Source: Oligoflexales bacterium
Lineage (GTDB): Bacteria; Bdellovibrionota_B; Oligoflexia; Oligoflexales; RGVZ01
DNA: 24,019 nucleotides
NCBI GenBank assembly: GCA_044236265.1
Contig: JBIIGV010000037.1
Location: forward strand, 1-24,019
Reading direction: 5' to 3'
The position numbers and the translations under genes were made by a program. This document shows positions 4,380 through 21,670 of this stretch, piece by piece. Below the pieces are notes generated by a model. That model was given only the letters and a program-made list of their open reading frames with translations, was not told where the DNA came from and ran no database searches. Positions within the stretch are counted from its first letter, which is position 1, and each line of letters begins with the position of its first letter.

Positions 4380-4392
4380 CTTTTTGAAAACG

Positions 4393-5040: not shown

Positions 5041-5058
5041 GTCGACTTGTCCTGTTAA

Positions 5059-5385: not shown

Positions 5386-5503
5386 GATGATGTCTCCAAA
5401 TGAAGTACTTTGAACGCTTATTCAAGCCAAGACGAAGCCTTTTGTAAAGCGACGATCGACATAAAAACAACAAACTGCTCAAAAATAAGGCTGATTGTTA
5501 TAA

Positions 5504-6529
5504 TTAGCTGACTTTAACACTTAATCCAGGCCCACCAACCACAACATCCATGACCTGGCCGCCGGCATTTGTCATAGCTTTTGAGACTTTTTCCGTGAGT
5601 TCGCGTGGACAGAAGACACCCATGACACCACCGCCTCCCGCACCGCAAACTCTCGTAAACATCGCCCCTGCGTCCCTGGCTGCGATATCAATCCGTTTTG
5701 TTTCCTCGGTTTCGATCTTAGGCCAAAGTGCGGTTCTTAGTAGCCACTCGCGTTTAGACGCAGCAATCGCCTCTTTCCACATTTTTTTGGAGACCGCTTC
5801 GGCGCAATCAGCAGCTTCGTGGCCAATGGCGGCAATTTTTTCGAGAAGGCCTTGGTCACCATCGAAGATGCGTTTGAAAATTTCCCAGTTGTTAATGGCG
5901 CTGGCTCTTGATTTGCCGCTGTAGCAGCAAATGAGGTTAAAGTCCTGCCCCTCCCAGATTGAACCTGGAAGCGTGGTAACAGTTGTGCGCCCAAATGGAA
6001 ATTCGATGATGTTTATGCCACCACGCATGCCGCCCCAGTAGTCTTGAACCCCAGTTGGCGCATGTATGACTCGCGACTCCACGTCTTGGGCCGTTCGGAC
6101 CAGCTCAAACTCATCGGGAATTTTATAGGATGGTTCAAACTGTTTGCGCGCTTGAGCAATTGCTCCAACGAATGCAACAGAGAGGCAGCTAGATCCCCCT
6201 AAACCTGCTCCAGCCGGTGATCTTGCGCTGGTTTTGATTTTTATCGTAGGGAGATTCTTATTCCAAAATGCGCTTAGCAAAAGCGAGAAAAGGCGAAGCT
6301 TTGGTGAACTGATGATTTGTTCAAAAGTCCCACTATCAGAAATTTTTTGGTCTGTGCTTTCGAAATAAAACAATTTGTCAGGAGAGGGTGTCACTTCAAC
6401 AGAGGCTTCGAGACTCACGGCAACGTTGACGGTCGCTTTGCGGTCCAAAAGATTATGAATGGGCCAAAGGTCAATTGTTCCTCCCGCAAGGTCTACGCGA
6501 GTGGGTGCAATGGAGTTGATTTTGAACAT
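5504..6529 (-). CDS. GHMP-family sugar kinase (HddA, heptose-7-phosphate kinase-like)
   Basis: APTRVDLAGGTID, PAGAGLGGSS ATP-binding loop, GVQDY and CGAGGGG motifs. Confidence 0.85.
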   Translation of the reverse strand: MFKINSIAPTRVDLAGGTIDLWPIHNLLDRKATVNVAVSLEASVEVTPSPDKLFYFESTDQKISDSGTFEQIISSPKLRLFSLLLSAFWNKNLPTIKIKTSARSPAGAGLGGSSCLSVAFVGAIAQARKQFEPSYKIPDEFELVRTAQDVESRVIHAPTGVQDYWGGMRGGINIIEFPFGRTTVTTLPGSIWEGQDFNLICCYSGKSRASAINNWEIFKRIFDGDQGLLEKIAAIGHEAADCAEAVSKKMWKEAIAASKREWLLRTALWPKIETEETKRIDIAARDAGAMFTRVCGAGGGGVMGVFCPRELTEKVSKAMTNAGGQVMDVVVGGPGLSVKVS

Positions 6530-6575
6530 TTTTAATTCCCCATGTTTTTATGTGGTAAAATTGTAACATGACAAA

Positions 6576-7142
6576 ATGGGTGACGCTCTTGTGTCGAGTG
6601 AGGTTCAGTTGACTATAAAACATTTATTTGACCAAAAACGCATGCGCGTCGGTCATTGGAACGCAACTCCAGGATTTATTTCTGCAGCTTCTGCTGCCAT
6701 AGAGCATCACCTGAAACTTTTAATAAAATTGGATATGGTTGAGGTACGTTCACTAGACGACCCCAACCTAAGGCCGGCTGATGTGCTATTTATTTCAGCA
6801 GATGGTATTGAGGACGAGCAGTATCCCGTATGGCTAAAAGGTATAAGTACTCGAATTCCCAAGGCTCACGGCATTCCTGTGCCTACGATTATTTTTGGTA
6901 ATATTTCGTCGGCTGTCCAGTCAGAGATTCTGCGATGGGCAGTTGAAGGCAATTGGTATTTTGATATTGTCGACCCCGGCCATGTCTCAAGCTTAACTGT
7001 GCGTGTTGCCAACTTCCTAAGGATTCATGATCACCTTCATGAGATTCGGCGCATGAGTAGCGCTAGCAAAACTTTGGAGGACAAGGTTGCGGACATGGAA
7101 AAACAAATTGAGCAAATATTGAAAGGCCCCACCAAGCCGTGA
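6576..7142 (+). CDS. Hypothetical protein, degenerate receiver-like domain plus C-terminal coiled coil
   Basis: 188-aa ORF with an alpha/beta pattern (ADVLFISAD, PVPTIIFG, FDIVDP), then LTVRVANFLRIHDHLHEIRR...LEDKVADME, which resembles a receiver alpha5 plus signalling helix. Confidence 0.5.
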   Translation: MGDALVSSEVQLTIKHLFDQKRMRVGHWNATPGFISAASAAIEHHLKLLIKLDMVEVRSLDDPNLRPADVLFISADGIEDEQYPVWLKGISTRIPKAHGIPVPTIIFGNISSAVQSEILRWAVEGNWYFDIVDPGHVSSLTVRVANFLRIHDHLHEIRRMSSASKTLEDKVADMEKQIEQILKGPTKP

Positions 7143-7429
7143 CGATGATTGACGCTAAAAATTTGTCCGATGAAGGCTTCATCGCACAGTATGTGATTGA
7201 ACTTCTCGGATCGGGACATTTCCTGTCCCATGATGACTACGCGCGGATTGGAAAGTGGCGTGAACTGTCTTCGTCAACGGACGAGCTACTTCTCGTCTTA
7301 GATGAAGTCCTGTCCGCGAAAATTATGAAATCTCGTCAAAAGGGTAAAAAAGTTTTCTCTCTCTCCTCGATCAGCAAGACTATGGAGAAAAGGCTGAGCG
7401 AGCGAAAAATGCTCGTTCAAGGGGCTTAA
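7139..7429 (+). CDS. Hypothetical protein (96 aa)
   Basis: GTGA start/stop overlap with the upstream gene at 7139-7142; ends 1 nt before the next ATG, consistent with an operon. Confidence 0.65.
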   Translation: MTMIDAKNLSDEGFIAQYVIELLGSGHFLSHDDYARIGKWRELSSSTDELLLVLDEVLSAKIMKSRQKGKKVFSLSSISKTMEKRLSERKMLVQGA

Positions 7430-7430
7430 C

Positions 7431-7826
7431 ATGTCAAAAACCACTGATGTCGATATGGATAAGATTGTCGAAAGACTGAAAATAGACCGCATAAAGCGGC
7501 ATATTTTTTTGTGTACTGGAGACAAATGTTGTTCGGCAGAGACTGGCATGAAAGCCTGGGAGTTCCTCAAAGAACGAACCAAGGATACTGATGCTGTTGA
7601 CGCGGGAGTTTACCGAACCAAAGTTGGTTGTCTTCGCATTTGCCGCGAAGGTCCTATAGCTCTCGTTTACCCCGAAGGTGTTTGGTACAAAAATGTCACG
7701 GTTGAAGCCTGCAAGAAAATCGTCGATCAGCATTTGATCGGTGGAAAAATTGTGGAGGAACTTAAAGTCGCGGAGCATTCATTGCATCCGGCCTTATCTT
7801 CAGCTGACCAATGGGACACTCCCTAG
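7431..7826 (+). CDS. Thioredoxin-like [2Fe-2S] ferredoxin
   Basis: HIFLC....CC, GCLRIC.EGP..LVYPEGVWY and IV..HL..G.IV motifs. Confidence 0.92.
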   Translation: MSKTTDVDMDKIVERLKIDRIKRHIFLCTGDKCCSAETGMKAWEFLKERTKDTDAVDAGVYRTKVGCLRICREGPIALVYPEGVWYKNVTVEACKKIVDQHLIGGKIVEELKVAEHSLHPALSSADQWDTP

Positions 7827-7934
7827 AAAATCAGAATTGGTGACCGTCATCTGTTTTTTGTCAGAGTGCGTAAACTAAACACGAGTCTGCACAGCATAAA
7901 ATTTATGACAAACAGTGAAATCAAGACTCCGTTT

Positions 7935-7966
7935 AATTGACGTCGTCAATTTAAATATGAGACAAT
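7935..7966 (+). promoter_or_regulatory. Putative sigma70 promoter of the rhodopsin gene with an overlapping palindromic operator
   Basis: TTGACG (7937-7942), an 18-nt spacer, then TGn-GACAAT (-10 at 7961-7966). A perfect inverted repeat AATTGACG-T-CGTCAATT spans 7935-7951. Confidence 0.5.
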
Positions 7967-8033
7967 CTTGTTAGTTATTCACATTAATGTTCAGTGTCTA
8001 GGTTGCTAATTTAAATTGGAGTGGAGTCAAAGT

Positions 8034-8795
8034 ATGACGGAACTAACAGCAGCGCAGTTTTCGCTCGTTTACAACATGTTTTCGTTAACCATTGCTAGTA
8101 TGGGAGCAGCTTTTATCTTCTTCCTAGCATCTAGATCGCAAGTGGCGCCAAAATACCGCGGCGCGCTTACTGTGTCATCTTTAGTGGTGGCTATCGCTTG
8201 CTATCACTACTTCCGCATCTTTAATAGCTGGAACGAAGCGTTCACCCTGAGCGGCGCCGTATATACGCCGTCTGGCAAGCCATTCAACGATGCCTACCGC
8301 TATGTCGATTGGCTTTTGACAGTTCCACTTCTTCTTGTTGAACTTGTCGCAGTCTTGGCATTGCCGAAAAATCAGCGTGAAGGCCTCTTTGGTAAGCTAG
8401 CTATCGCGGCTTTCCTAATGATTGCACTTGGCTATCCTGGTGAAGTCGCCACAGACAATACAACTCGGGCTATCTGGGGCACTCTGTCCTCGATCCCATT
8501 CGCTTACATCCTAATGATCCTCTGGGGCAAATTGGGTGCAGCAATCGAAAGCCAGCCAGGCGAGGCAAAAGTCTACTTGACCAACATCCGCCTACTGCTT
8601 CTTTTGACCTGGGGCTTCTACCCAATCACTTACATGCTTCCAATGTTCGGCATTGACCCACAATCCTCGGTTGTTGGTATTCAGGTTGGATACGCTGTCG
8701 CTGACGTGCTTGCAAAAGCCTTCTACGGCGTGATGATCTACTGGATCGCAAGAGCTAAGTCAGAAAACGAAGGTTTTGCTGACGCCGCTCACTAA
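8034..8795 (+). CDS. Xanthorhodopsin/Gloeobacter-rhodopsin-type light-driven proton pump (DTE motif)
   Basis: Seven hydrophobic segments. Helix B has YHYFRI; helix C has FNDAYRYVDWLLTVPLLLVE (D-T-E, Leu at the tuning site). Also GYPGE, TWGFYP and helix G ADVLAK (Schiff-base Lys at 8715-8717). GGAG SD at 8023-8026 supports ATG 8034 over TTG 8016. Confidence 0.96.
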   Translation: MTELTAAQFSLVYNMFSLTIASMGAAFIFFLASRSQVAPKYRGALTVSSLVVAIACYHYFRIFNSWNEAFTLSGAVYTPSGKPFNDAYRYVDWLLTVPLLLVELVAVLALPKNQREGLFGKLAIAAFLMIALGYPGEVATDNTTRAIWGTLSSIPFAYILMILWGKLGAAIESQPGEAKVYLTNIRLLLLLTWGFYPITYMLPMFGIDPQSSVVGIQVGYAVADVLAKAFYGVMIYWIARAKSENEGFADAAH

Positions 8796-8835
8796 ATCAG
8801 CAACTGGTCGCACTAGCGTCCTAAATTGCAATTGA

Positions 8836-10884
8836 TTAAACCGCCTTCGCTGAAAAGCAAGGCGGTTTTTTTTTCAGAAATCTCTTCATGACTGGCGCAT
8901 GAGACGCAGTTAAAGCTCCGATCCCCAAGAAAACGATCTTCCAAATTTGTTGACTACCGCCTGAGTGCGCATAAAGCCAGGCTAGCAGCGTAATCCCCAC
9001 AAGGCTCAAGGTTGTGTAGGGGAGGCTTTTTATCAGGTATTGCTTGGATGACCAGCCCTTGACAGCTCGTTGGACCGCAATCGAATCCCACCCGTGCCAG
9101 AATGCGAAGAAACAAAAAAATCCGGGCAGCAGGGGAAGTGCCAAAGTTGAAGCGGCGAGAACGACGGTGGCGGGCATACCGATCACAGACCTGCCAAGAG
9201 TCTTGCGCTCATATCGATCAAAAATCGCGGACGCAAATAGTGCGGCAAAGAATACAATTACCCCGCAACCGCGCGCAGCTTCCAAGGTCATTCCTTTGAT
9301 TGAGAGAGAGTCTCCGAGAATTAACTGGATAATCGGGCTTGCCTCCTGCCAATGGACTAGAACGCCAAATGTTGCAGCGAATAAACCCCATATCCATGCT
9401 GCTACGCGGCTCCAAGTGGCATATCTAGAACTTTTTATGGCACGAATCCAGTATGCTTCACCGAAATGATCCGCTGACTGGAACAGAAAAAATACCAACG
9501 CCAGTGGCGGAAACACAAACCAGGTGAGAATAAATAAAGCTATGGAGCCTAGATAAACGCTATAAAACTGGTAGGGCTTTTGAGATGTGGGATCAAGGAG
9601 ATGATCCAAGCTGCCGTGTCCAATCCCAGTCGTCAATAGACCGATAAAGGGAATCACCCATCCTGCCAAACCGCCAATCGTCCAATGAAGAACGACACTG
9701 GCCAACGCCGCAAAGATAAACGGATATAAAACAAAAAGACTACGTAAAAATGGAGCCCACGGCAGACCTAAAAATATTCTAATTTCTTGGGAAAATTTCG
9801 ACTTTTCATCGAGGAATAATAGGATTTTTGAGGCACTATTCGCTGAGAAAAGAATGTAAAAGATTTTCGAGATCATCTCTCCATTTGTTCTGATAATTCG
9901 CAGTAGAAGTGCGTCATAAACCTGAAAACGAAAATGTCCGTAGGACGTGGTCGCTAAACCACTCAAGTGCCGAAGGTTTCTCTGAAATGAGTAGCCTGTG
10001 CTTGCTTTCACCATACCAGCAGCACCACCAATGACCTGGATAACTGAACTAGAGTCAGACGCTGGGAATTTCGGTTCTGCATTGAGTGTCATCGGGATAG
10101 CACCTGATTCTACCTTCAGAACGCGAAAATTCGGTAAGCAAAGCTTGTGAGCAATATACTCTCGAAGTATCGACTCGCACGCTTCCGGTGGAATTTTTTG
10201 GGCTGCAAATACCGTAAACTCGACCAAAGCGCGACGTCGATCAAACGGTAAAACATAGACAAAGCGAACTTCGCCTTGTTGTTCAAGTCTAAAATCCATC
10301 AAGTCGACCAGGTGCGGATCAAAGTGATCCTCCTCTGTTTCAAGTTCAAAACCGAGGAAATATTGCAACAGCTCTGGCTTCTGGACCGTCACAGAATTAA
10401 AGACGCGCCCTGCTGAAAACGTCTGACCGGATGCGGTCGTGACCAAGGCTGTCCTTTTTGCGTTTAACTCCTCGGTTCTCTCGAGAATGCCCGTGACCGA
10501 ATCTTTGAATTTTTGAAATCTCTTATCATTTTCAAGTCTGTGCTTGATTTTAATGAGTAGACGTTCGCCGGGAATCCTCTCGTAGTAATAATCACCAAAG
10601 TTACAGATAACTGGCTGACGCTCTGTCGATGTTATCCGAAATTTATCCCAGCGGTTCTCGATACAATCTGAATAACGATGGGGAGTGGCCGTTTTGAGCC
10701 GCCAGGAGGCAAATGTCTTGGATGAAAGCGACTCAGGGTCTGGATCGATGATCGCCACTCGGAGATCTTGTGACGTATCGTCTGCAAGAATATCGGCTTG
10801 CATGAGGCCGGCCAAACCGCCACCAACTATTATGACGTCGAAATCCGTCAAGTGGGCGACCATTTTACCACCCGTCCTTTCCAT
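8836..10884 (-). CDS. crtY-blh: Fusion protein: lycopene beta-cyclase (CrtY-type, N-terminal) + beta-carotene 15,15'-dioxygenase (Blh/Brp, C-terminal)
   Basis: N-terminal ~380 aa: DVIIVGGGLAG FAD motif, LMDFR, FVYVLPF, ALVEFT, ESGAIPM, GGAAGMVKASTGYSF, FLDE...LP..PF. C-terminal ~290 aa is multi-TM with GIGHGSLDH, SADHFGE, FFAFWH and LTASH. One uninterrupted frame; the start may be ATG 10863. Confidence 0.9.
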   Translation of the reverse strand: MERTGGKMVAHLTDFDVIIVGGGLAGLMQADILADDTSQDLRVAIIDPDPESLSSKTFASWRLKTATPHRYSDCIENRWDKFRITSTERQPVICNFGDYYYERIPGERLLIKIKHRLENDKRFQKFKDSVTGILERTEELNAKRTALVTTASGQTFSAGRVFNSVTVQKPELLQYFLGFELETEEDHFDPHLVDLMDFRLEQQGEVRFVYVLPFDRRRALVEFTVFAAQKIPPEACESILREYIAHKLCLPNFRVLKVESGAIPMTLNAEPKFPASDSSSVIQVIGGAAGMVKASTGYSFQRNLRHLSGLATTSYGHFRFQVYDALLLRIIRTNGEMISKIFYILFSANSASKILLFLDEKSKFSQEIRIFLGLPWAPFLRSLFVLYPFIFAALASVVLHWTIGGLAGWVIPFIGLLTTGIGHGSLDHLLDPTSQKPYQFYSVYLGSIALFILTWFVFPPLALVFFLFQSADHFGEAYWIRAIKSSRYATWSRVAAWIWGLFAATFGVLVHWQEASPIIQLILGDSLSIKGMTLEAARGCGVIVFFAALFASAIFDRYERKTLGRSVIGMPATVVLAASTLALPLLPGFFCFFAFWHGWDSIAVQRAVKGWSSKQYLIKSLPYTTLSLVGITLLAWLYAHSGGSQQIWKIVFLGIGALTASHAPVMKRFLKKKPPCFSAKAV
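8838..8874 (+). terminator. Rho-independent terminator for the rhodopsin gene, overlapping the last codons of the convergent gene
   Basis: AAACCGCCTT (8838-8847) / AAGGCGGTTT (8859-8868) form a stem that runs into a T9 tract (8866-8874). Confidence 0.8.
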
Positions 10885-12008
10885 TCATAGCGTCCTCGCA
10901 GGCTGGAACTAATGGCTTTATAAGCAGCTATGTTCAGAAGTAGTAAACTTAGAGGGTGCAGAAGTAGATCTCGAAGCGGCATCTTAAAAGATCTTGCTGT
11001 CAAAATTCGACTTAAAGCCAATAAACAAAGCGAAATAACTGCCAAGTCAGGGCGATAAAAATAGCCCCAAAATGGAAATAGAAAAACAAAATTGACGGAA
11101 GCAATAATGCATCCAAAAATTAATGGTGTGCCGCCACCGATCGCGACCAGATTTTTTGAAAATCCAGCCAAGGTGGCCCGCCAATTAGGATACATGGATA
11201 CGCGAATGTGATTGGCTGCCAAGACTGGCTGAACACCGCGACCTGTAATTCCGTGAATCTGGCGCGCCAGTGCGACGTCCTCTAATGGCGTCAGGCCAAG
11301 TTTTCGGTGACCTCCGCTTTTAAAATAATCACTCTTGAATAGTGCGACCCATTGCCCGTTGGCCATTTGCATGGACTTTGTTGGCAAGCGCCAGCAGCAA
11401 AACAACGGTAGCGATATCATCAATGGAAGATTCATGATCCATGGTATCAGTAAACGCTCAAGCAAGCCTTGACACGACTGTGCAGGTAAAGCCGATAGCC
11501 CCGACATTAGCTTGCGCGCCTGTGGCTGCATCAAGAGATCTACCGTGCAACGAACAGCACTCGTCGAGGGTCGCACATCGGCGTCGCAGAAAATTAAAAT
11601 ATCTCCATTCGCTAGGTCAGCAAGTTGCGCGCAAGCATGAGCTTTCCCAGAGATTTTTTTGCTCTCGTTCCATGGAGCTCCCCGCACGATCTTTAACGGT
11701 ATGGTAGCATTTGATATGAACGAGTTTACAATGGCTGAGGAGTCATCGTCAGACTCGTCATCAAGAATGATCACCTCCATTGGTCTGTAAGTTGATGACA
11801 GCAGAGCCGTAAGGAGGTGGGGGATATTTTCGGCCTCATTTCGAACAGGTATAAGTAAACTGACCAGGGGTTTTTCACCGGTATATTCAACTGTGCTTCC
11901 CAGTTTAGTTGCAAAAATCGCATTAAGGATGACCATTACGGTCGAAATTACGATTGCTGAGAATGATAACAAACTTAGGGAGTCACCGAGGAGGGTTAGA
12001 TCCATCAA
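10848..12008 (-). CDS. GT2 glycosyltransferase, carotenoid glycosyltransferase (CruC/CrtQ-like)
   Basis: VSLLIPVRNE, LDDESDD, GK..AC.QL, FCDADV, ANGQ, EDVALA, MY......GFSKN and WKGR motifs; carotenoid cluster context. AGGAGGT SD precedes TTG 12008 / ATG 12005. Confidence 0.85.
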   Translation of the reverse strand: MMDLTLLGDSLSLLSFSAIVISTVMVILNAIFATKLGSTVEYTGEKPLVSLLIPVRNEAENIPHLLTALLSSTYRPMEVIILDDESDDDSSAIVNSFISNATIPLKIVRGAPWNESKKISGKAHACAQLADLANGDILIFCDADVRPSTSAVRCTVDLLMQPQARKLMSGLSALPAQSCQGLLERLLIPWIMNLPLMISLPLFCCWRLPTKSMQMANGQWVALFKSDYFKSGGHRKLGLTPLEDVALARQIHGITGRGVQPVLAANHIRVSMYPNWRATLAGFSKNLVAIGGGTPLIFGCIIASVNFVFLFPFWGYFYRPDLAVISLCLLALSRILTARSFKMPLRDLLLHPLSLLLLNIAAYKAISSSLRGRYEWKGRVVKWSPT

Positions 12009-12664
12009 CGGACACCTCCTGCTAGTAAATTTTGGGGAGCATTCAAGGACGCTAGATCTAAAATTTTTGTGACTTCGGTCTCTAACGTTTTGTGATCAAC
12101 TTCAGTCCGCGCGCTATCAATTGGTTGACCGGCATAAATGAAGGCTGTCGGCCTCTCATGATTCATAGGCTCGATGTGTAGCCCAATAGGTACGTACTGA
12201 ACTCGCCCTGTAATTTTAGATAGTATTTCAATTCCACGCTGAAAACCGAGGGGTCTTTGACGTAGAGGAGATATTTTTCCTTGCGGGAAATAAGTCAGCG
12301 TCCGGTAAGGATTTGCAGCTACAAGATCTCGAAACTGAACAAATGCTCGACGGATACTTGCTGGATTTCCTGGCTCGATTCCGAAACATCCAACCTTTCG
12401 TAAGATTGGGAATTTCTTTAGCTCGCTCTCCAGCATCAGTGAGAAGATGCCGGATCCGGGCCTCAATCGATTTTGGACTTCAAAGCAGAAAAAACCGTCC
12501 CACCAGCTAATGTGATTTGGCACCAAAATAACTGGTACCTCGGGATCTAGTTGACCAATGGCATTTTTCAAATCGAAATGAATAGATGCAAAACATCTTT
12601 GGTACTTCCATTGGAGGTACCGATCCCAAAACCATCTGACAGTGTTGTTATGTCGAGGTGCCAC
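12005..12664 (-). CDS. PlsC-family acyltransferase, probable carotenoid-glycoside acyltransferase (CruD-like)
   Basis: PNHISWWDG (HxxxxD) and YFPQG motifs; overlaps both the CruF-like and glycosyltransferase genes. Confidence 0.82.
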   Translation of the reverse strand: MAPRHNNTVRWFWDRYLQWKYQRCFASIHFDLKNAIGQLDPEVPVILVPNHISWWDGFFCFEVQNRLRPGSGIFSLMLESELKKFPILRKVGCFGIEPGNPASIRRAFVQFRDLVAANPYRTLTYFPQGKISPLRQRPLGFQRGIEILSKITGRVQYVPIGLHIEPMNHERPTAFIYAGQPIDSARTEVDHKTLETEVTKILDLASLNAPQNLLAGGVR

Positions 12665-13529
12665 GGGTCAATAATCCGAGATGCAACGTGCCTCGCGTGG
12701 AACTAAAAAGACAGAGTAAGAGCAGTGTGACCGTCGTAAGAATAACAGGTGACCAGGCTGATCCAGCAATTGACAGGCCGACCGGAAGGGACAGGCTTAA
12801 CAAGTAAAATTTAGCAGGCCATGAACGCTCGAAGCGATTTCCATAATTTGAAAGACCCAAAATTTCAAAACTGAGGAATATTAAAAAGCCAGTGAGCAAC
12901 CATCCGAAAAGATTTCTGACGGCGACCCCGAAGAAAAAGACCCCTGACTCTTCCCAAATCCAGTAAGGAGTTAACTGACTCATGGCAGGCTCCAGGGTGA
13001 AATCCCAGGCGACTAGGAGCAATGATGCTATGATGATTCGTCCAAGGCGATGCCACAAATGACCTTTCGCGCCTCCAAAAGCCCTCAGAGGTTTAGGTCC
13101 GAGAATCTGATTTGCTAGCAGATAACAACACAGAGACATGCAAAACCAACTGACAGGAATCAACACAGGAACTTTATCGCCAAGCTTCCAGCCAAGCAGG
13201 CTAGTATAAGAATATTTGCCAAACGGGATCCCGTAACTAGTGCCGCCAAATTCCATGAAAAAACTGATCAAAAAGGCGGGTAGAAAGTACAGCAGCCAAC
13301 GCCAACTCAAAACTTTGTGGGCGGCCCTTATGCACAACCAAAAGCAAAGAAGAATCTGCAATCTCGCAAAAAGCGGGTATGATATGGCGTAAATTGGCGG
13401 CGACCATGGATAGCGCGCAAAAAGTTCTGGATGTAGCGTAAAAGTTGCGTATCCAAAAATTGATATAGCATTGATGAAAAGCAAGGCCCACATTGGAGAA
13501 AAGAATAGCACATGAGTCACTCGGGGCAA
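12648..13529 (-). CDS. cruF: Carotenoid 1,2-hydratase, CruF family
   Basis: E..GTSYGIPFGKYSYT..LG.K....VP.LIP.SWF, AWD..LEPAM, YWIW and RNLFGW motifs; multi-TM. The start is uncertain (TTG 13529 or ATG 13493). Confidence 0.85.
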   Translation of the reverse strand: MPRVTHVLFFSPMWALLFINAISIFGYATFTLHPELFARYPWSPPIYAISYPLFARLQILLCFWLCIRAAHKVLSWRWLLYFLPAFLISFFMEFGGTSYGIPFGKYSYTSLLGWKLGDKVPVLIPVSWFCMSLCCYLLANQILGPKPLRAFGGAKGHLWHRLGRIIIASLLLVAWDFTLEPAMSQLTPYWIWEESGVFFFGVAVRNLFGWLLTGFLIFLSFEILGLSNYGNRFERSWPAKFYLLSLSLPVGLSIAGSAWSPVILTTVTLLLLCLFSSTRGTLHLGLLTRGTST

Positions 13530-14273
13530 GGATATTTAGGACGTACCACAGTCACAAACAGTGACGGCGCAGCCCCTGCCCTAGGAGTTTTAGTCGTTAC
13601 CACGTGGCTTGTTAGTGTTTGGTTTGCTTTTACACGCGTTCGTACAGGTGTTTTCCCTGACTCTTTAGCCAGTATTGCCATGATGCTGTGGATACAGTTT
13701 CTTTACTGTGGTCTTTTCATCGTGACCCACGATGCCTGTCATGGCACCGCGTGGCCGGGAAAACCAAGGCTGAATCGATGGCTGGGAAAGACCACAGCGA
13801 TGCTCTATGCGGCCTTTGATTTCGATCATCTGGTACCAAAGCACCTTGCTCATCACAATCATGTTGCCACCCTCCAAGATCCGGATTTTCACGATAATAC
13901 CTCTAAGGGAAGCTCTTTTTGGGCCTGGGGTTGGCGATTTTTTAAGCATTATCTGAGCCTGAGGCAAATTCTTATCATGATGGGTGTGGCTCAGATTTTT
14001 TTTCATGTGCTCAAGATACCAGAGAGAAACGTCATCCAGTTCTGGGTCGTTCCAGCTATCTTGAGTGGCATCCAGCTCTTTCTATTTGGCACTTGGCTAC
14101 CACACAGAGCAAAAGCTGGCGAAGAGTTTCCCGATCGGCATCATGCCAGAGACTCTGGACTACCGTGGTTATTATCTCTCGTTTCCTGCTGGCATTTCGG
14201 CTACCATCATATTCATCATCTGAAACCCGGCGTGCCGTGGTTCAGGCTACCGTCCTACAGGAGGCCATCATGA
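13512..14273 (+). CDS. crtW: Beta-carotene ketolase, CrtW type
   Basis: GLFIVTHDACHG, KHLAHH, DPDFH, QLFLFGTWLPHR and CWHFGYHHIHHLKPGVPW: three His boxes with CrtW-specific flanks. Confidence 0.92.
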   Translation: MSHSGQGYLGRTTVTNSDGAAPALGVLVVTTWLVSVWFAFTRVRTGVFPDSLASIAMMLWIQFLYCGLFIVTHDACHGTAWPGKPRLNRWLGKTTAMLYAAFDFDHLVPKHLAHHNHVATLQDPDFHDNTSKGSSFWAWGWRFFKHYLSLRQILIMMGVAQIFFHVLKIPERNVIQFWVVPAILSGIQLFLFGTWLPHRAKAGEEFPDRHHARDSGLPWLLSLVSCWHFGYHHIHHLKPGVPWFRLPSYRRPS

Positions 14274-14476
14274 AATTGCGATCGATCTTAATGTGGACCT
14301 TGGGTGGAGCGTTGTTTGGAGTCGCCTTCGGAGCGATAGCCTCTATCTTTCAAGGAGGCCCAGACGCTATGCGAGGTATCCAGGAATCATGGTGGTGGTT
14401 TGGCGTCGCTGGATTTTTGATGTCAACGATCGGAAATGGTAGCGACCGCGCGAGAGGCTCCAGCCAATCTCATTGA
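14270..14476 (+). CDS. Small (68 aa) Gly-rich membrane protein translationally coupled to crtW
   Basis: AGGAGG SD at 14259-14264 and an ATGA overlap with the crtW stop. Sequence MKLRSILMWTLGGALFGVAFGAIASIFQGGPDAMRGIQESWWWFGVAGFLMSTIG... has two hydrophobic segments. Confidence 0.6.
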   Translation: MKLRSILMWTLGGALFGVAFGAIASIFQGGPDAMRGIQESWWWFGVAGFLMSTIGNGSDRARGSSQSH

Positions 14477-15307
14477 TCCCAGTCCCTTGATCTTGAATAC
14501 AAGTAATAGACCCTGAGCGACCGCGACTAACTTGCCAGGCTTCGAAACCACGGTTCGCCTGCGGAACGCAGTTTCTGTATTTTCTCTCGCAGACCGCAAA
14601 AGTTTATGTCCGATTCGTTGGTAAACCTTGCCTGCGATTGCAATGGCAAAAGAGACTCTCCACGGCAGCCAGTAGATGCCTTGAAATCCATGTTCATATA
14701 ACTCATCGGCTCTACGAAGGAGTTTAATAACCGCATCGTGTGCGAGCTCAGGATTAGTCGACAAAACCTTCGCATCGACGTTTTCCAAAAGATCTTTTGA
14801 AATATAAATACGACCAATACTTGCATCTGCTTGGACATCACGGGCGATGTTCGTCAGCTGCATTGCAGACCCCAGAGAAATCGCGTGAGCACTTGCCTGG
14901 TCTGGATCAGCGCCGAGAAGTGGACACATCATAAGTCCCACGACGCCTGCGACACGAAAGCAATACTGTTCGAGTTCTTGGAGATTCGCGTAGCAACGGC
15001 CTTCCACATCCATACGCATACCGGCGATGAATTCTGATCGCTGCCAGTCGTCCAACCAGCGAGGTCCAGAAAGAGCTGCATTCAGTGACCCACGATCCTC
15101 CATCAGTGAAAGTTGTGCCTTTGCCGATAGCAAGTCGGGTGCATCATCGATGGCATCATCACAGCGTCTACACCACTGATAAAGCAATAAGACTTGTTCC
15201 CGGCAGCTTTTAGGCAGGAAAAGTGAGGCTAAGGAAAAACTTTTTGATCCTTGCTTGATGGCTTCAGCGGGAGACGAATTAAAGTCAAGCGTTTGTGAGT
15301 AAGTCAT
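14423..15307 (-). CDS. crtB: Phytoene synthase
   Basis: GSKSFSLAS, LYQWCRRCDDAIDD, GMRMD, YCFRVAGVVGLMM and AMQLTNIARDV..DA..GRIY motifs. GGGAG SD supports ATG 15307 (ORF track starts at 15334). Confidence 0.95.
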   Translation of the reverse strand: MTYSQTLDFNSSPAEAIKQGSKSFSLASLFLPKSCREQVLLLYQWCRRCDDAIDDAPDLLSAKAQLSLMEDRGSLNAALSGPRWLDDWQRSEFIAGMRMDVEGRCYANLQELEQYCFRVAGVVGLMMCPLLGADPDQASAHAISLGSAMQLTNIARDVQADASIGRIYISKDLLENVDAKVLSTNPELAHDAVIKLLRRADELYEHGFQGIYWLPWRVSFAIAIAGKVYQRIGHKLLRSARENTETAFRRRTVVSKPGKLVAVAQGLLLVFKIKGLGSMRLAGASRAVATISDR

Positions 15308-16841
15308 TTGTCGCTCCCGGCTCGCGGCTTCCAATTGGGAGACCTGCTCTCAAGTCTTCAAGCACCAATGTGGCAGTGGCCTTAGCCGAGTTGACAACTC
15401 CGGGTACGCCTGCGCCTGGATGAGTCCCAGCTCCCGTAAAGTACATTCCAGAAACCCGGCCATCGCGGTTATGAGTGCGAAAGAATGCGCTCTGCCAGAG
15501 AACGGGTTCACTGGAAAATGCTGAGCCAAGATGCGAGTTTAATTCAGTCTTGAAATCCATCGGAGTGAAAATCTTCTGAGTCACGATGTGCTTACGTAGA
15601 CCGGGTGCGTAATGTTGTTCGATATAATTTAAGATCCGGTCAGCATATTCTGGGCCTTCCTTTTGCCAGTCCACTTGAAGATTCCCGAGGTGTGGTACTG
15701 GAGAAAGTACGTAAAAAGCCTCGCAGCCTTCCGGCGCCATCCCTGGATCGGTCCGAGTCGGTGCATGCAAATAGAGAGAAAAATCATCGGGGATTTTGCT
15801 GGCCTTGGAAAAGATCTGACTTAAAAGTCCGCGGTACGACTTGCCGAAAAGAATATTATGGTGCGCAAGTTCTGGGTACTGCTTATCGGTACCAAAATAA
15901 ACTAAGAATAATGACATGCTCTGCGAATGACCGAGAACTTTCTTTCGTCCGGCCTCTGCCTCGGGGGTGTTTCGCAGTAGATGACTATAGCTGTGCACCA
16001 CATCCGCGTTGGAAACAACAACATCACAAGGCCATACGCCACTTGCGGTCCTAACGGCGCTAACGTGACCCTCAGTTGTGATAATTTCCTCTACTGGAGA
16101 TGATAATCGCACCTCTCCACCAAGCTCCTCAAAGACTTTGACTAAAGCGCGAACCAAAGCACCTGTGCCACCGCGCGGGAAGAAGACACCCCACTTGCGT
16201 TCAAGATAGTGGATCAAAGTATAAATAGAGGACGTTTTAAAAGGATTGCCGCCAACCAATAGAGTATGAAAACTGAAAGCTTGACGCAGCTGTGGGTCCT
16301 TGATGAAACGTGCGACCGTCTTGAAAACGGAGCGATGAGCGCTCAGTTTGGTCAGTTGCGGAGCGACACGGATCATGCTCCACCAGTTTAGAAACGGCAC
16401 GTGGGCTAATTTCGTGTAGCCCTCATCAAAAACCTCTTTTGAATATTTCAAAAATCTGGAGTACCCATCCACATCTTTTGGGGATTTTTTTTGAATCTGT
16501 TCAGACGTACTAGCGGGGTCATTGGAGTAATCAAATGAAAACCCGTTCTCCCAGAACAAACGATAGAAGGGCGTCACTGGCATCATCTCGACGTAGTCTT
16601 CCATCCTTTTGCCGGAAAGGTCGAAAAGTTCCCGCAAACAATCTGGAGCAGTGATAACGGTCGGTCCAGCATCAAACGTAAAGCCTTTATCCCGGTAGAC
16701 GTATGCTCGGCCTCCAGGCTGATCGCGTTTTTCAAACACAACAACCTTATTTCCTGCCGCTTGCAATCGGATGGCGGCAGCAAGACCTCCAAACCCACTT
16801 CCGATCACAGCAACACGAGCAGAGTTCTTATTTTTATGCAT
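15285..16841 (-). CDS. crtI: Phytoene desaturase (CrtI, lycopene-forming type)
   Basis: VIGSGFGGLAAAIRLQAAG, FDAGPTVIT, FSFHTLLVGGNPF, DDFSLYLHAP and GAGTHPGAGVPGV motifs. Confidence 0.97.
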   Translation of the reverse strand: MHKNKNSARVAVIGSGFGGLAAAIRLQAAGNKVVVFEKRDQPGGRAYVYRDKGFTFDAGPTVITAPDCLRELFDLSGKRMEDYVEMMPVTPFYRLFWENGFSFDYSNDPASTSEQIQKKSPKDVDGYSRFLKYSKEVFDEGYTKLAHVPFLNWWSMIRVAPQLTKLSAHRSVFKTVARFIKDPQLRQAFSFHTLLVGGNPFKTSSIYTLIHYLERKWGVFFPRGGTGALVRALVKVFEELGGEVRLSSPVEEIITTEGHVSAVRTASGVWPCDVVVSNADVVHSYSHLLRNTPEAEAGRKKVLGHSQSMSLFLVYFGTDKQYPELAHHNILFGKSYRGLLSQIFSKASKIPDDFSLYLHAPTRTDPGMAPEGCEAFYVLSPVPHLGNLQVDWQKEGPEYADRILNYIEQHYAPGLRKHIVTQKIFTPMDFKTELNSHLGSAFSSEPVLWQSAFFRTHNRDGRVSGMYFTGAGTHPGAGVPGVVNSAKATATLVLEDLRAGLPIGSREPGATNDLLTNA

Positions 16842-17892
16842 ATGCAGTCATCACTTTCTGTGCCAGATCTCGCAGCGACGAAATGGCCGCCACTTGCGCG
16901 TTAGTTTCGACGACACAATTTAATTCATCTAAACATGCTTCGAATTCTGCCATTGCTAGTTCTTGAGCCTTCTCGACGATTCGCTTGAAGAGTAATGAAT
17001 CATCACCAGAAATTTCATTGGGATGTCCCATCAAGTACTGAAATTTAATGAAGTCTGGTGCCTCAAGCTCTCGAGCGGCCACAGCCCACACCCATGAAGG
17101 TCTAATTAGTGGCCTACAGATCATTTGGCTTTTGTTTTTTGGCGATACGTCTCCGATATCGTTAAACATCTGTAAGGCTACGCCGAAACGCTGGCCGAAT
17201 TTTGCCAGACAGAGGCGTTTGATAGAGTCCGCGTCACCAACGATTGCGCCCAATTCAGCGCACATGCCGGTTAGCTCTCCAGTCTTCAGTTCTATCGCTG
17301 TAACTGAAATATCGAGCGCTTCACGCTGTGAGCATTGGGTCATATCGTGGCCAAGATCAAGAGCCTGCCCCTGATGGGCGAGGAGCATTGTCCTGTGGAA
17401 AAGGCGGTAAATCTCAAGCTCAACAGTTGGAGTTAGAGCCTGCTTTCGTAGCAAATCTATTGGCCAAAAATATAGCCAGTTCGCCGCGTTGATGGTTCGG
17501 GGAACTCCGATCTGCATATGCAGCGCCGCCTTGCCTCGGCGCATTTCGTCTGCATCTTGGATGTCATCGATCATAAGTGAACCAGCATGCAACGCTTCAA
17601 CCACGCAAGCCAAGCAGTCGAGAAGTGATTGCTGGCTTTCAATCAATGATCCAGCCGTAGTATTGGCAATAGTAAAACCAATATGAACTAGTTGCGCACG
17701 AACTTGCTTGGAATTACGACTTGCGAACTCACGAACTGGGGCCACTAAAGCAGCATCTAAACTAGGATCAGAAGTGCTCGGAAGATGGGCAGCCAAAATG
17801 GGCAATAGCTCAGTCCGGGTATTATTTTTTTGCAAGGTTGTTTTATGATTTATCACCGCTAGAAGGGTAATAGATGTCTCATCTGGGGTCAA
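16834..17892 (-). CDS. crtE: Polyprenyl (geranylgeranyl) diphosphate synthase
   Basis: HAGSLMIDDIQD....RRG, GQALDL, KTG and LQMFNDIGD (second Asp-rich motif as NDxxD); 8-nt overlap with crtI. The start codon is uncertain. Confidence 0.85.
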   Translation of the reverse strand: MTPDETSITLLAVINHKTTLQKNNTRTELLPILAAHLPSTSDPSLDAALVAPVREFASRNSKQVRAQLVHIGFTIANTTAGSLIESQQSLLDCLACVVEALHAGSLMIDDIQDADEMRRGKAALHMQIGVPRTINAANWLYFWPIDLLRKQALTPTVELEIYRLFHRTMLLAHQGQALDLGHDMTQCSQREALDISVTAIELKTGELTGMCAELGAIVGDADSIKRLCLAKFGQRFGVALQMFNDIGDVSPKNKSQMICRPLIRPSWVWAVAARELEAPDFIKFQYLMGHPNEISGDDSLLFKRIVEKAQELAMAEFEACLDELNCVVETNAQVAAISSLRDLAQKVMTAYA

Positions 17893-18121
17893 GAAGTGTG
17901 AGTAAAAAGATGCATGCTAGTGGAGCCTGTTTTTTTTAATTTGGCCACAGCATGCGTCGAGTCGGGCTGAACGGCAAACGCCTTATAAGTTCCAGACATC
18001 AAATAGATAACTCCTTAGCACAGTCAGGACTGAGTGAACGGATTTGGATAATTTATGTGACCTTTTTCTGTCTATTGGAGCTTTAATGGGCTCGAACTTT
18101 GAATGTTATTAATGCGGAAAT

Positions 18122-19255
18122 CTATTCGGCCAAAGATCTTAATCTTTTCGGATGAAAGATAGCCGGTACAGTTTTGGATCTGCCTTCAATGATGAACTCC
18201 GAAAGTCCTCGCCCGGCCGCGCAGCCCAGTGTAAGTCCCGATCCCATGTAGCCTCCAGCCATCAGAACTCTTGAATCATCATACATCGGTCCAATAATTG
18301 GAATTTCATCGCAGGCTCTGAGCTCAAGCAGTGCGTGCTGCAGTGTCGGATTGGAAAGTTTCACATCGAAGAGTGACTCGATTCTTTTTTTGACGGTGCT
18401 TGTGATCTTTTCGTCGAGATGCGCTTCGATCGCCTCCACGCCAGCCCACTTTCTTAGATACCTCGCTCCACCGGCGCGGAGCTTTCTATCTGACGTGACT
18501 GAAATCCAGTATTGGCTAAAATCTGAGAGTAGAAGGTTGCCAGGAGTCAAAAATGGATATCTTCCATCAAACTCAAATTCTGCCCACTGGTCGGCATGAT
18601 TGACGAGGCAGGACTCCATGTTGGGAATTAGTTTTTTGATTCCAAGGTGACTTGCTACCACAACAACTTCTGCCGTCAGTTTTATTCCTGAAGACGTCAA
18701 AACAGAGATGTGACGAGGTGTTGTTTCAATCCTGATGACATCCTCTGGAAAAATCTTGCTACTAAGGTCTTCTTCCATATGACCCAGTAAGGATTCCATA
18801 TTGATTGATGCGGAAGCCGTACCATCCGACTGGTAGGTCAGTTTTTGCGTCCCACGCCCATCAAGACTTACAGAGCTTGGAAAGCCATTGCTGGCAAGCC
18901 AAGAGCTTGCGACAGCCATCTCCTGCGCTTCCATATCTGACTGGGTGAGCCGGTAAACCCGTCCCTCGTGGTGGTCAACTTTAAACTGAGTTGTCAGATC
19001 CATTAAATCTGAAAAGCCGATACGACCCAGTCGTAACAGATTTCTTGCAGCGTCCTCGCCGTGCCCGTGCACAGTTCGAGAGATGTTATCCAACGTGGAA
19101 ACGGCTGCGTAGCCAGAGTTTATAGATGCGCAGTTGGTAAAATCGCGACTCGGAGCAACAAAGCAAAAAGATCCAATGCCATAGCGCTTCAGGTGAAGGC
19201 CTGTACTCAGACCCGTAATACCCCTTCCAATTATGATGACGTCGAATGCTTGCAT
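18122..19255 (-). CDS. FAD-dependent oxidoreductase (DAO / glycine oxidase-like family)
   Basis: DVIIIGRGITGLS, ASINSG, D.IPIIG and AGGYMGSGLTLG motifs. Confidence 0.85.
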   Translation of the reverse strand: MQAFDVIIIGRGITGLSTGLHLKRYGIGSFCFVAPSRDFTNCASINSGYAAVSTLDNISRTVHGHGEDAARNLLRLGRIGFSDLMDLTTQFKVDHHEGRVYRLTQSDMEAQEMAVASSWLASNGFPSSVSLDGRGTQKLTYQSDGTASASINMESLLGHMEEDLSSKIFPEDVIRIETTPRHISVLTSSGIKLTAEVVVVASHLGIKKLIPNMESCLVNHADQWAEFEFDGRYPFLTPGNLLLSDFSQYWISVTSDRKLRAGGARYLRKWAGVEAIEAHLDEKITSTVKKRIESLFDVKLSNPTLQHALLELRACDEIPIIGPMYDDSRVLMAGGYMGSGLTLGCAAGRGLSEFIIEGRSKTVPAIFHPKRLRSLAE

Positions 19256-19348
19256 GAGGGCTTAAATAAGGGTTTGTTAGCCTGTAAACTCAGTCAAAAC
19301 AATGTTAAGCTACATCGTACGTCAATTCCACTAACAACGGGTAAGAAT

Positions 19349-20857
19349 ATGGTCCTCTTGTCACGGAAGTTTGTCTCATCAATTATCGTTACAACTACGA
19401 TGTTTGTTTCAACGTTGGTCTTGGGCGCATCCCTTGACGTTATTGGATGGGGCCCGACCTCGCATATCAAAGCCAAAAAAGAACCACCCACCTGGCTTGG
19501 GGATGATCCCATCCTGGGTCGTCTAGCTTGTCCCGCCATTTTGCGACTTGAAGGTGATCAGCTAAAAAATGACGCCCTACTTCTTAAGGTAAATCCCTCG
19601 GTGGAAAAGGTTGGTTCAGGTGAGCGTTGGACTCTGACCCTGCGCCCAGGTTTGCGTTGGTGGTCGGGATTTCCGATTGATGCTTCGTCATTATCCAACT
19701 GGCTTAAAACAGCTCTTCCGCAGGCGGTCACCGAACGGTTGAGTGCCGCTTTTCCAGCGGACGTTACATTCTCAGTTGCTGGCCCATTGGCAGTCAGAAT
19801 TGATTTTCCAAAGGCACCGAACTTTGGTCCTTACGTCCTTTCTGGCATCAGCTTGATGCGCCCTACTCCAGATGAAGGGTTTGAGTGTGCTGGTTTGTAC
19901 TCAATGAATGTCATGCCGTACGGTGTAGATCTTGTTTTGAACAAAGGTTACACGGCAAAGTACGACACAATAAAAGTCTACGGATCTAGTACGGCCCTTG
20001 GCACAAGTTCGGCTGGTATTAAGTTTTCCATGGCCAATCAGGCATCTAAGGCATCTGCAACCGCTATTGAAACCAAGCAGTGCGTAAACCGTATCGATAT
20101 ACCTCTGTTCACGACATTAATCTGGAATCCTTCCTCGCCTCTCTCATCGTCAGCACTGCTTAGGCAGGGTTTGACCATGGCGACTCCTCGAGGAGAGATT
20201 TTGAGAACTGCTGCCGGCGACATTGGTTCTCTGGTCTCGGCTCCTATTCTGCGTTCACATCCCGGCTACAATTCAAAAACATTGATTCGCCCCTACAACT
20301 TGGAGGCGGCATCTCAGATTTTTGAACAAGCTGGCTACAAGCAGGCTCACATTGGTCTTCCGCGTGCAAAAACTGCTGATAAGCCGGTTTCCATCCAGAT
20401 TGCCCGCATGAGTGGCCGCCAGGACTTGGTCGAAAAGATTATCAGCGACTCGTTCGCCTCTCTTGGAATTGAGACCCACTTTGATGATATTTCCAATAAA
20501 AACGAAAAATTTGATGCCGTCATGGCTGGGATTTTCATTCCAATGTTATCACAGGACCTGAGGTCTGTGGCCCACACATCAGCCATCAAAACGGGCGGTA
20601 AAAACGGTCTTTCCTTTCCTTTTGAGTATCAGGGTGATAAGAAGCTGGACGAACTTTTAGACGACTACTCGGTGTCATTGACGAGAGACAATGCCGACTT
20701 TGGGCTGCTCAGAAAAGTTCATGAACGATGGTTCGAGGTTGAACCATGGACTGTGGTGATGGCTCATCAGTACTGCGTCGAATCGAAGGGACTTAATGTC
20801 CCTAAGAAGCTAAATACGCGAGATGCAGACTGGTTCCGTCGCTTGACCGTTGATTAA
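19349..20857 (+). CDS. Extracytoplasmic solute-binding protein, family 5 (OppA/DppA-like), divergent
   Basis: Signal-peptide-like N-terminus from ATG 19349; WTLTLRPGLRWWSGFPI, LRQGL..A..R.EI and YNLEAA.QIFEQAGY motifs. The ORF-track start at 19061 overlaps the divergent gene and is unlikely. Confidence 0.75.
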   Translation: MVLLSRKFVSSIIVTTTMFVSTLVLGASLDVIGWGPTSHIKAKKEPPTWLGDDPILGRLACPAILRLEGDQLKNDALLLKVNPSVEKVGSGERWTLTLRPGLRWWSGFPIDASSLSNWLKTALPQAVTERLSAAFPADVTFSVAGPLAVRIDFPKAPNFGPYVLSGISLMRPTPDEGFECAGLYSMNVMPYGVDLVLNKGYTAKYDTIKVYGSSTALGTSSAGIKFSMANQASKASATAIETKQCVNRIDIPLFTTLIWNPSSPLSSSALLRQGLTMATPRGEILRTAAGDIGSLVSAPILRSHPGYNSKTLIRPYNLEAASQIFEQAGYKQAHIGLPRAKTADKPVSIQIARMSGRQDLVEKIISDSFASLGIETHFDDISNKNEKFDAVMAGIFIPMLSQDLRSVAHTSAIKTGGKNGLSFPFEYQGDKKLDELLDDYSVSLTRDNADFGLLRKVHERWFEVEPWTVVMAHQYCVESKGLNVPKKLNTRDADWFRRLTVD

Positions 20858-20889
20858 ATAGGAAGCCTTGCGCAAAGTATGGTCGCGAG

Positions 20890-21669: not shown

Positions 21670-21670
21670 T

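Follow-up and report, generated by a model that had tools for sequence, protein, structure and literature searches.

The native carotenoid of fenestrated rhodopsins is known for few organisms, and most of these proteins have been tested with added pigments. The question raised by the locus described here is whether one piece of DNA can hold the pump, the route to its retinal and the route to a carotenoid antenna. The locus lies in the window, a term used below for the whole stretch of 24,019 nucleotides that was analysed, which is the entire contig C179 (JBIIGV010000037.1) of an Oligoflexales genome (GCA_044236265.1, here G000; 3.25 Mb, 88.7% complete). It comprises ten genes, encoding a xanthorhodopsin (XR), CrtE, CrtI, CrtB, CrtW, CruF, CruD, CruC, a CrtY-Blh fusion and a small membrane protein called orf68, and this block is a probable ten-gene phototrophy island of freshwater Oligoflexia/Bdellovibrionota that behaves as a unit. 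The wider proposal, to which slightly more than an even chance is given, is that of a mobile island with a retinal branch, a keto acyl-glycoside branch and an antenna, in which orf68 serves the pump. Since the pump, the retinal route and a candidate antenna route stand together on one 10-kb piece, the native-antenna question becomes directly testable; moreover, the block would open a genetic way to a pigment resembling salinixanthin, and it suggests that among lake Bdellovibrionota the capacity for antenna phototrophy can be passed on in one piece.

The Ten-Gene Block and Its Distribution

The features of the block are the following (coordinates in the window, with the supporting matches in brackets; aa, amino acids).

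7827..18121, no strand: inserted segment between the convergent genes for a ferredoxin (stop at 7826) and an FAD-oxidoreductase (stop at 18122)
8034..8795, plus strand: predicted xanthorhodopsin-family proton pump (DTE, fenestrated), 253 aa (PF01036, E 1e-37; best PDB match 3DDL, E 3e-86)
8836..10884, minus strand: crtY-blh fusion (PF05834 at aa 16-308, PF15461 at aa 415-667, TIGR03753 over its cut-off; four His motifs)
8838..8873, no strand: bidirectional hairpin resembling an intrinsic terminator, between the convergent rhodopsin and crtY-blh genes (fold z -4.7 on the plus and -3.8 on the minus strand)
10848..12008, minus strand: CruC-like glycosyltransferase of family GT2 (PF00535; weak CruG/HpnB models under cut-off; fixed place after cruF-cruD in related blocks)
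12005..12664, minus strand: CruD-like acyltransferase of the PlsC type (PF01553, 24.6 bits against a cut-off of 23; HxxxxD motif; synteny)
12648..13529, minus strand: CruF-type carotenoid 1',2'-hydratase (PF04240, E 1.5e-43; NF045693, 140 bits, under cut-off)
13512..14273, plus strand: CrtW-type beta-ring 4-ketolase (NF045690, E 4e-65, 220 bits with a cut-off of 350, versus 57 for CrtR; three His boxes)
14270..14476, plus strand: orf68, a glycine-rich two-helix membrane protein of 68 aa without a name (AGGAGG site; ATGA overlap with crtW)
14423..15334, minus strand: phytoene synthase CrtB (PF00494, E 2e-51)
15285..16841, minus strand: phytoene desaturase CrtI (TIGR02734, 668 bits; the sole crtI-family match in G000)
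16834..17892, minus strand: prenyl diphosphate synthase, with a CrtE role suggested by its position (PF00348, E 7e-33; geranylgeranyl diphosphate (GGPP) synthase models under cut-off)

The rhodopsin gene is thus on the plus strand, crtE, crtI and crtB as well as cruF, cruD, cruC and crtY-blh are on the minus strand, and crtW lies on the plus strand between these two groups. A preliminary description of this DNA had named nine genes between 8034 and 17999. All nine are intact open reading frames (ORFs) without internal stops, at the positions given, and match the expected families in Pfam and NCBIfam profiles; the start of the interval holds and its end does not, the last gene stopping at 17892, and the list was incomplete, a tenth gene (14270-14476, plus strand) having been overlooked. 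The calls for cruC, cruD, cruF, crtE and crtW are made at the family level, under the NCBIfam equivalog cut-offs, and their roles are drawn from family match and gene order.

The same description had proposed a transferable unit, and this is borne out by an empty site in relatives, by differing flanks and by a patchy, all-or-none presence, the features that mark a genomic island. In eight of ten congeners the flank markers are 0.67-0.72 kb apart, in another 1.37 kb, and one has no match; the distance is ~11 kb here. In G012, the closest backbone tested, the gene for the ferredoxin directly adjoins that for the oxidoreductase. Two carriers, G004 and G006, have the present site empty and the block elsewhere, and among the seven carriers with enough contig the flanks differ except in G015 and G016, which have common ones. 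A chimeric assembly was considered and rejected, since contigs with different alleles from lake run X4 bridge both block edges and depth is even; no joint skipping the block was found in the four runs examined. In run X6 one contig diverges into unrelated sequence at 7994, shortly before the start of the rhodopsin gene, which would fit a different left neighbour of the block in that lake.

The stretch is contained in 20 sequencing runs (possibly two of them its source), labelled as lake water metagenome (16), aquatic (1), freshwater (1) and metagenome (1) or unlabelled (1), with no RNA run among those listed. Among named records, the nearest that have this block are metagenome-assembled genomes (MAGs) of Oligoflexales/Pseudobacteriovoracaceae, and the host is probably a freshwater (lake) Oligoflexia bacterium. 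Among 130 genomes of the phylum, a rhodopsin occurs in 24, crtW in nine, orf68 in nine and cruF in 14. The genomes with crtW and orf68 are the same nine, out of 21 of the family, whose rhodopsin is 89-100% identical to the present one; these nine carriers are kin, so that their co-occurrence is a pattern and not a test, which tells against the wider proposal. Within the family, full-score crtI is found in these nine only (the G020 copy is cut by a contig end; a G018 match of 131 bits, under cut-off, was not counted), and cruF in eight of them, the ninth (G019) being 77% complete and broken at the block. The remaining 12 genomes of the family comprise 11 without a rhodopsin and G005, in which a different rhodopsin is accompanied by blh alone. 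Gene order is identical in all seven carriers with enough contig.

Beyond the family, the survey covered the 80 best rhodopsin loci from named genomes, many of them on short contigs. The order seen here recurs in three, and five distant Bdellovibrionota records (L033-L037) have it rearranged, with cruF, cruD, cruC and blh kept in all five, crtW in four and crtE/I/B/Y in two; the other 72 loci, many of them short, gave no cruF, cruC, cruD or crtW with the queries used. Several side observations concern these relatives. The block version of L035, from Oligoflexia, is flanked (L035:2367-6090) by a photolyase, DUF2256/DUF2805 and a CrtZ-like hydroxylase. Fasciclin-domain genes (PF02469) stand beside distant blocks (L033:20011-20472 and L035:11814-12239, with similar starts at L034:4815-5087 and L217:6180-6689), and a search of G000 with the L035 protein gave none; fasciclin-type carotenoid-binding proteins reportedly occur in algae. 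In G015, which also has an intact block, a second rhodopsin (L027; G015:C2, ~25900-27300) is split over two frames and lies tail to tail with a second cruF.

The Rhodopsin

Among solved structures, the rhodopsin scores best with the XR of S. ruber (3DDL, 292 bits), Gloeobacter rhodopsin (GR, 287 bits) and Kin4B8 (281 bits), psXR also being among the best, versus less than 92 bits with proteorhodopsins. It has D92, T96 and E103 (the DTE motif), the retinal lysine K228 and, at XR position 156, G149, the glycine of antenna rhodopsins; by its closeness to XR and GR, its placement in the tree, the DTE motif and the retinal lysine it is a subgroup I xanthorhodopsin. The rhodopsins of the blocks form one clade (11 rows, support 98, in a quick tree without a clade test), the G006 copy is 98% identical in amino acids, with a nonsynonymous divergence (dN) of 0.013, and XR genes on plasmids amount to two records, at 53%. 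On the evidence of its motifs the protein is very probably a green-absorbing outward proton pump, formed when retinal binds K228.

The carotenoid slot of helices E and F is also largely retained. By hand count on the alignment, five of the seven S. ruber carotenoid-site residues (list in PMC3646047) are identical, T160>S is conservative and A198>L different, and six of the eight Gloeobacter residues (list in PMC9151804) are identical and two conservative, the comparison covering the residues named in these two papers rather than the full 16-residue list. The base of the fenestration is hydrophobic (M204/F205), versus the polar S208/Y209 of Kin4B8, and T150 is as in GR, versus F157 in XR. In the alignment, E177 replaces R184 of XR and N184 corresponds to N191 of XR, both of which (R184 and N191) we take to be sugar contacts in that protein.

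The hairpin at 8838-8873 was matched in stability by none of 200 shuffles and has a U-run on its plus side; it could end both convergent transcripts, and it is absent from the listing of a consensus terminator scan. Another record, a 2.2-kb Chloroflexota contig, has two xanthorhodopsin genes of equal score that point towards each other (L077:266-1953), which may be an assembly artefact.

The Predicted Retinal and Carotenoid Routes

The retinal set crtE-I-B-Y-blh is complete beside the opsin, with crtY and blh fused, and the gene calls support the earlier claim of a pump with retinal synthesis, as a complete route from prenyl diphosphates. From the isopentenyl and dimethylallyl diphosphates (IPP/DMAPP) of the host, CrtE, CrtB and CrtI would make lycopene; the CrtY domain would then cyclise both of its ends to beta-carotene, which the fused Blh domain would cleave to retinal. 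The locus had been called self-contained, and this is right from IPP/DMAPP on and wrong before that point, as there is no idi in the block and hydroxymethylglutaryl-CoA (HMG-CoA) reductase is present elsewhere in the host; no 1-deoxy-xylulose 5-phosphate (DXP) reductoisomerase was found in G000, within the completeness given above. The prenyl diphosphate synthase has one DDxxD motif, its second reading NDIGD, and its best NCBIfam match, under cut-off, is a family 2 encapsulin cargo polyprenyl transferase. Of 25 other loci checked, 16 have crtY-blh as a single open frame, two of them beside a proteorhodopsin-like gene. In another family of the order (L028 and L029, from G043 and G050) the same fusion follows a proteorhodopsin-like gene, ~30% identical to the XR here; in these two genomes cruF lies on other contigs and crtW was not found.

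In the second branch, CruF would hydrate one end of the molecule and CrtY cyclise the other, the CruC-like enzyme would add a sugar by 1'-O-glycosylation, the CruD-like enzyme would acylate this sugar with a fatty acid, and CrtW would place a 4-keto group on the ring. The true start of cruF is probably a downstream ATG, because homologues begin later, and relatives of crtW carry the JGI name 'beta-carotene ketolase (CrtW type)'. For the salinixanthin pathway, family-level matches to CruF, CruC, CruD, a cyclase and a ketolase are all present, the ketolase being of the CrtW and not the CrtO type. Neither the block nor G000 (88.7% complete) yielded a candidate for crtD, crtZ or the 2'-hydroxylase, so that no gene was found here for the 3',4'-desaturation by CrtD or the 2'-hydroxylation of that pathway. 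Two PF04116 matches in G000 were considered as crtZ and rejected for their resemblance to sterol-desaturase-type proteins; with the CrtZ-like protein of L035 as query, nothing was found there.

Salinixanthin itself was rejected as the product, as no CrtD or 2'-hydroxylase was found. The keto-carotenoid acyl-glycoside branch of the preliminary description survives in a reduced form, as a hydrated, glycosylated, acylated and probably 4-keto monocyclic pigment, predicted to lack the 3',4' double bond and the 2'-hydroxyl of salinixanthin because no second crtI-family gene or hydroxylase was found; a fifth desaturation might conceivably come from CrtI itself. To judge from the gene set, the product is likely a 1'-hydroxy-4-keto-gamma-carotene glycoside ester. 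A similar pigment is said to occur in Rhodococcus. Beta-carotene, which CrtY has to supply to Blh, is a substrate of CrtW, and echinenone or canthaxanthin are possible side products. The enzyme logic of this branch has been studied in Rhodothermus marinus, where knock-outs showed that CruF, CruC and CruD modify one open end and where 4-keto beta,psi-carotene acyl glycosides are made (PMC7414004); CrtW paralogues producing ketomyxol have also been mentioned (PMC2889829).

orf68, a Small Membrane Protein Linked to Xanthorhodopsins

Compared with its G006 copy, orf68 has a dN of 0.14 and a synonymous difference (pS) of 0.54, values which indicate that it is under purifying selection. Its predicted structure consists of two helices (residues 2-26 and 33-55; pLDDT, the local confidence of the model, 71). 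It has no Pfam or NCBIfam match over cut-off, a PDB sequence search gave none and a fold search nothing at E<=0.001; its best Atlas score, 0.84 with a mark of 0.9, is a lead only. A profile seeded with XR neighbours, which could miss distant XR-free relatives, gave 61 matches in 1.84 billion representatives, 56 of them at E<=1e-10 and all but one 42-107 aa long. It is a discrete family, and the ten of its clusters looked up gave no informative name.

The constant neighbour of orf68 is the rhodopsin and not a carotenoid enzyme. In the named XR loci it occurs in 14 of 80, nine times directly behind the rhodopsin (in records named Rhodothermaceae, Rubricoccaceae, Bacteroidota, Ignavibacteria, Deltaproteobacteria, Sericytochromatia and Tanganyikabacteria) and five times inside a block of the present kind. 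A motif scan of metagenomes gave 57 loci, several of them repeats of one organism, with 22 real members: 13 lie directly behind XR on the same strand, six in a block of the present kind and three on pieces too short to tell, and all 12 readable XR genes ahead of orf68 are of the DTE type with Gly156. The other 35 were dropped, 34 because they reached 20-25 bits against the profile (two inspected fall in another gene) and one at a contig end. Among 151 genomes of the order of the Rhodothermaceae record, XR is found in 27 and orf68 in nine, eight directly behind XR and one partial without XR; three strong matches came from the 401 genomes of the phylum to which the L033 record belongs (one within a block, one coupled and placed between XR and blh, and one ahead of blh where the contig ends), and a Bacteroidota-wide sample of 251 genomes gave one, the seed itself.

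The preferred interpretation, on gene linkage, is that orf68 serves the rhodopsin as a physical partner or accessory, most likely by packing against the protein or its carotenoid, the chances of this over a looser helper role being about even. What weighs against it is that most XR genes are not followed by orf68 (it is lacking at 66 of 80 loci, and in 19 of 27 Rhodothermales genomes with XR). A role without rhodopsin contact, as a helper of the retinal or cyclase step or as a co-regulated stress peptide, falls just short of an even chance. Here orf68 lies behind crtW and 5.5 kb away from the rhodopsin, the gene after it is blh in G430 and G571 and a lycopene cyclase gene in several Rhodothermales, and Salinibacter-type XR loci are without it, so that it is not needed for antenna function there; all this fits such a helper, as does the genome G860, which has a partial orf68 and no XR match. 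On the other side, eight loci (L053, L084, L101, L103, L169, L171, L172 and L203) have orf68 behind XR and gave no carotenoid gene, and in G430 and L038 its start overlaps the XR stop codon. The partial orf68 of G860 (L229) stands ahead of a lycopene-cyclase-like gene and is possibly a remnant after pump loss. Predictions of a complex of rhodopsin and orf68, each entered as an alignment, scored 0.20 and 0.31 with a mark of 0.32 and are not used as evidence.

If orf68 does bind the pump, proton-pumping rhodopsins gain a protein partner, of which no description was found in the literature searched. The boldest form of this idea, which is doubtful, is a three-part pump complex of xanthorhodopsin, a home-made 4-keto-gamma-carotene glycoside ester antenna and an orf68 subunit that seats the antenna or assembles the oligomer, within a complete, portable two-chromophore photosystem; orf68 would then be a new accessory-subunit family belonging to one branch of antenna xanthorhodopsins across Bdellovibrionota, Rhodothermota, Ignavibacteriota, Myxococcota and Sericytochromatia.

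Probable Movement of the Block Between Lineages

The island may have been gained, lost and moved as one unit among freshwater Oligoflexia/Bdellovibrionota. Positions 7958-17752 of the window align to G006 at 75% of nucleotides, and pS to that genome is 0.47-0.74 inside the block versus 0.74-0.87 in ten flank genes, all ten block genes lying at or below the lowest flank value. Together with the empty sites, the lower pS of the block favours movement between lineages after their split, the signal being modest.

Several findings point the other way. No integrase or transposase was found among the ORFs of the window, no terminal repeat or target duplication links both edges among the repeat pairs listed, the GC content of the block is like that of the genome, and in a quick tree the rhodopsins divide the family carriers into two groups, as descent would. 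They accord with the view that no transfer between lineages took place and that the block is an old family trait, repeatedly lost and moved within genomes. The family rhodopsins being one clade, the saturation of synonymous sites against the other genus and a codon bias that the low rhodopsin pS may reflect also speak for this view, which is nevertheless unlikely: the closest backbone (G012) has an empty site, G004 and G006 carry the block elsewhere with this site empty, all ten block genes are at or under the lowest flank pS, and related blocks occur in records named Bdellovibrio and Bacteriovoracaceae. Movement between lineages is the reading retained here.

The Antenna Question

In the proposed mechanism, the keto ring would dock in the Gly149 opening beside the retinal and pass energy from blue light to the pump. 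That some ketocarotenoid made by the block acts as an antenna is on balance probable, judging from its genes and the slot of the rhodopsin. A number of points speak against it. Kin4B8, itself from Bdellovibrionota, binds salinixanthin but receives no energy from it, its working pigments being lutein or zeaxanthin and its polar S208/Y209 being linked to hydroxy-carotenoids (10.1101/2022.08.24.505090), and psXR, in which the base of the opening is less hydrophilic, does not bind canthaxanthin and binds lutein (PMC12779958); because of this behaviour, neither the ligand nor the transfer can be told from fenestration and matching residues. Furthermore, cruF occurs without the present rhodopsin in six of the 130 genomes, the loci of L033 and G430 have the rhodopsin with cruF, cruD and cruC and no crtW within ~20 kb, and the L035 block adds its CrtZ-like gene, which with crtW could give hydroxy-keto pigments. 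Finally, any pigment gene on a moving island would co-occur with the pump whatever its job.

It is doubtful, all the same, that retinal is the only chromophore of the pump, or that its carotenoid comes from the environment or from prey, with the keto acyl-glycoside as a membrane photoprotectant or stabiliser that is on the island since lit water needs it. The preference of Kin4B8 for hydroxy-xanthophylls, the six genomes with cruF alone and the photolyase gene beside the L035 block agree with this possibility, and photoprotection is given as an alternative for the same kind of pigment in the acI paper (10.1101/367102). Set against it, S. ruber XR and GR require a 4-keto group in their carotenoid (10.1101/2022.08.24.505090). 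Moreover, among the 130 genomes crtW is found in none that lacks the present rhodopsin, and the carotenoid-site residues have been kept. The least probable alternative is an antenna made of a bicyclic ketocarotenoid (echinenone or canthaxanthin, from CrtY and CrtW) as in GR, with the CruF/C/D product as a separate membrane pigment. For it count the binding of canthaxanthin by GR through residues retained here (PMC9151804), the beta-carotene that CrtY must supply to Blh and on which CrtW acts, the GR-like T150, and E177 in place of the presumed sugar contact R184; against it stand N184, equivalent to the presumed sugar contact N191, and the persistence of cruF, cruD and cruC beside the rhodopsin in G430 and each of the five distant blocks, including those whose locus is without crtE/I/B/Y. 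A block-made keto acyl-glycoside as antenna is the preferred reading.

Gene Arrangement and Flanking Genes

Within 12648-14476, cruF and crtW are head to head with nearly no spacer, an arrangement kept in L034-L037, and their promoters must therefore lie within each other's 5' ends; crtW and orf68 form an antisense pair amid a string of minus-strand genes. A promoter scan of the window gave six sites versus 11.9 expected. The flanks (1-7826 and 18122-24019) hold ordinary chromosomal genes, for an MqnC-like radical SAM protein, a thioredoxin, a GHMP kinase, the 2Fe-2S ferredoxin, the FAD oxidoreductase, a family 5 binding protein and an OlsB-like acyltransferase, together with genes that, judging by their sequences, are probably rplS, rnhB and map.

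Comparison With Known Systems

The enzymes of the block are all of known families and the two-branch logic is in print; the linkage in one block was not found in print. The earlier suggestion that this arrangement might be new accordingly stands for the linkage, within the literature searched, and falls for the logic, already proposed for acI Actinobacteria. Neither the one-block arrangement nor the crtY-blh fusion nor orf68 is described in the literature searched, a scope that left most subscription papers and supplements outside; the accessible parts of 10.1101/2022.08.01.502354, PMC6669644, PMC10576062, PMC12137139 and PMC8113403 describe no comparable block. Rhodopsin operons are reported to consist of blh and up to four carotenoid genes (PMC13043013), cyanobacterial XRs have no carotenoid genes nearby (PMC12779958), and PMC7701988 includes Oligoflexia MAGs with rhodopsins in its listing, those of L034 and L035 among them, with no carotenoid block noted in the part available.

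The operons of proteorhodopsins and subgroup II XRs (XR-crtEIBY-blh) resemble the present block in that pump and retinal genes moved as one operon, horizontal transfer having been reported in Tardiphaga; they differ in having retinal genes only and, in Tardiphaga, in being flanked by insertion sequence (IS) elements (PMC7701988). The block described here has five extra genes, the crtY-blh fusion and no mobility genes that were found. Kin4B8 (PDB 7YTB/8I2Z) shares the broad host group, the habitat and a fenestrated XR, and differs in taking lutein or zeaxanthin through S208/Y209 where the present rhodopsin has M204/F205 (10.1101/2022.08.24.505090). The cluster of R. marinus (cruF-crtB, cruD, crtI, crtY, crtO) has the same enzyme logic, shown by knock-outs, whereas its ketolase is CrtO and not CrtW, an extra 3',4'-desaturation takes place, and no rhodopsin or blh is mentioned in the available part of the paper (PMC7414004).

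The system of acI Actinobacteria, with actinorhodopsin and 'actinoxanthin', has a freshwater XR-clade pump with Gly156, and a retinal route and a gamma-carotene branch (CruF, glycosyltransferase, acyltransferase) proposed as an antenna, as here; there, however, the pigment genes occupy several operons, mostly at a long distance from actR, cyclisation is by CrtYc/Yd, and CrtA and CrtD occur without CrtW (10.1101/367102). The closest counterpart of the pump is S. ruber xanthorhodopsin, which is the nearest solved structure and has the DTE motif, the Gly156 opening and most of the helix-F slot residues in common with it. Its monocyclic 4-keto acyl glycoside corresponds to the partner predicted here, and its ketolase gene (crtO) is associated with the XR gene, subgroup I XR clusters being reported without conserved retinal genes (PMC3646047). 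Salinibacter-type loci differ from the block in being without orf68, and the block differs from S. ruber in its CrtW ketolase, in the absence of a detected CrtD or 2'-hydroxylase and in having its pigment and retinal genes together in one block.

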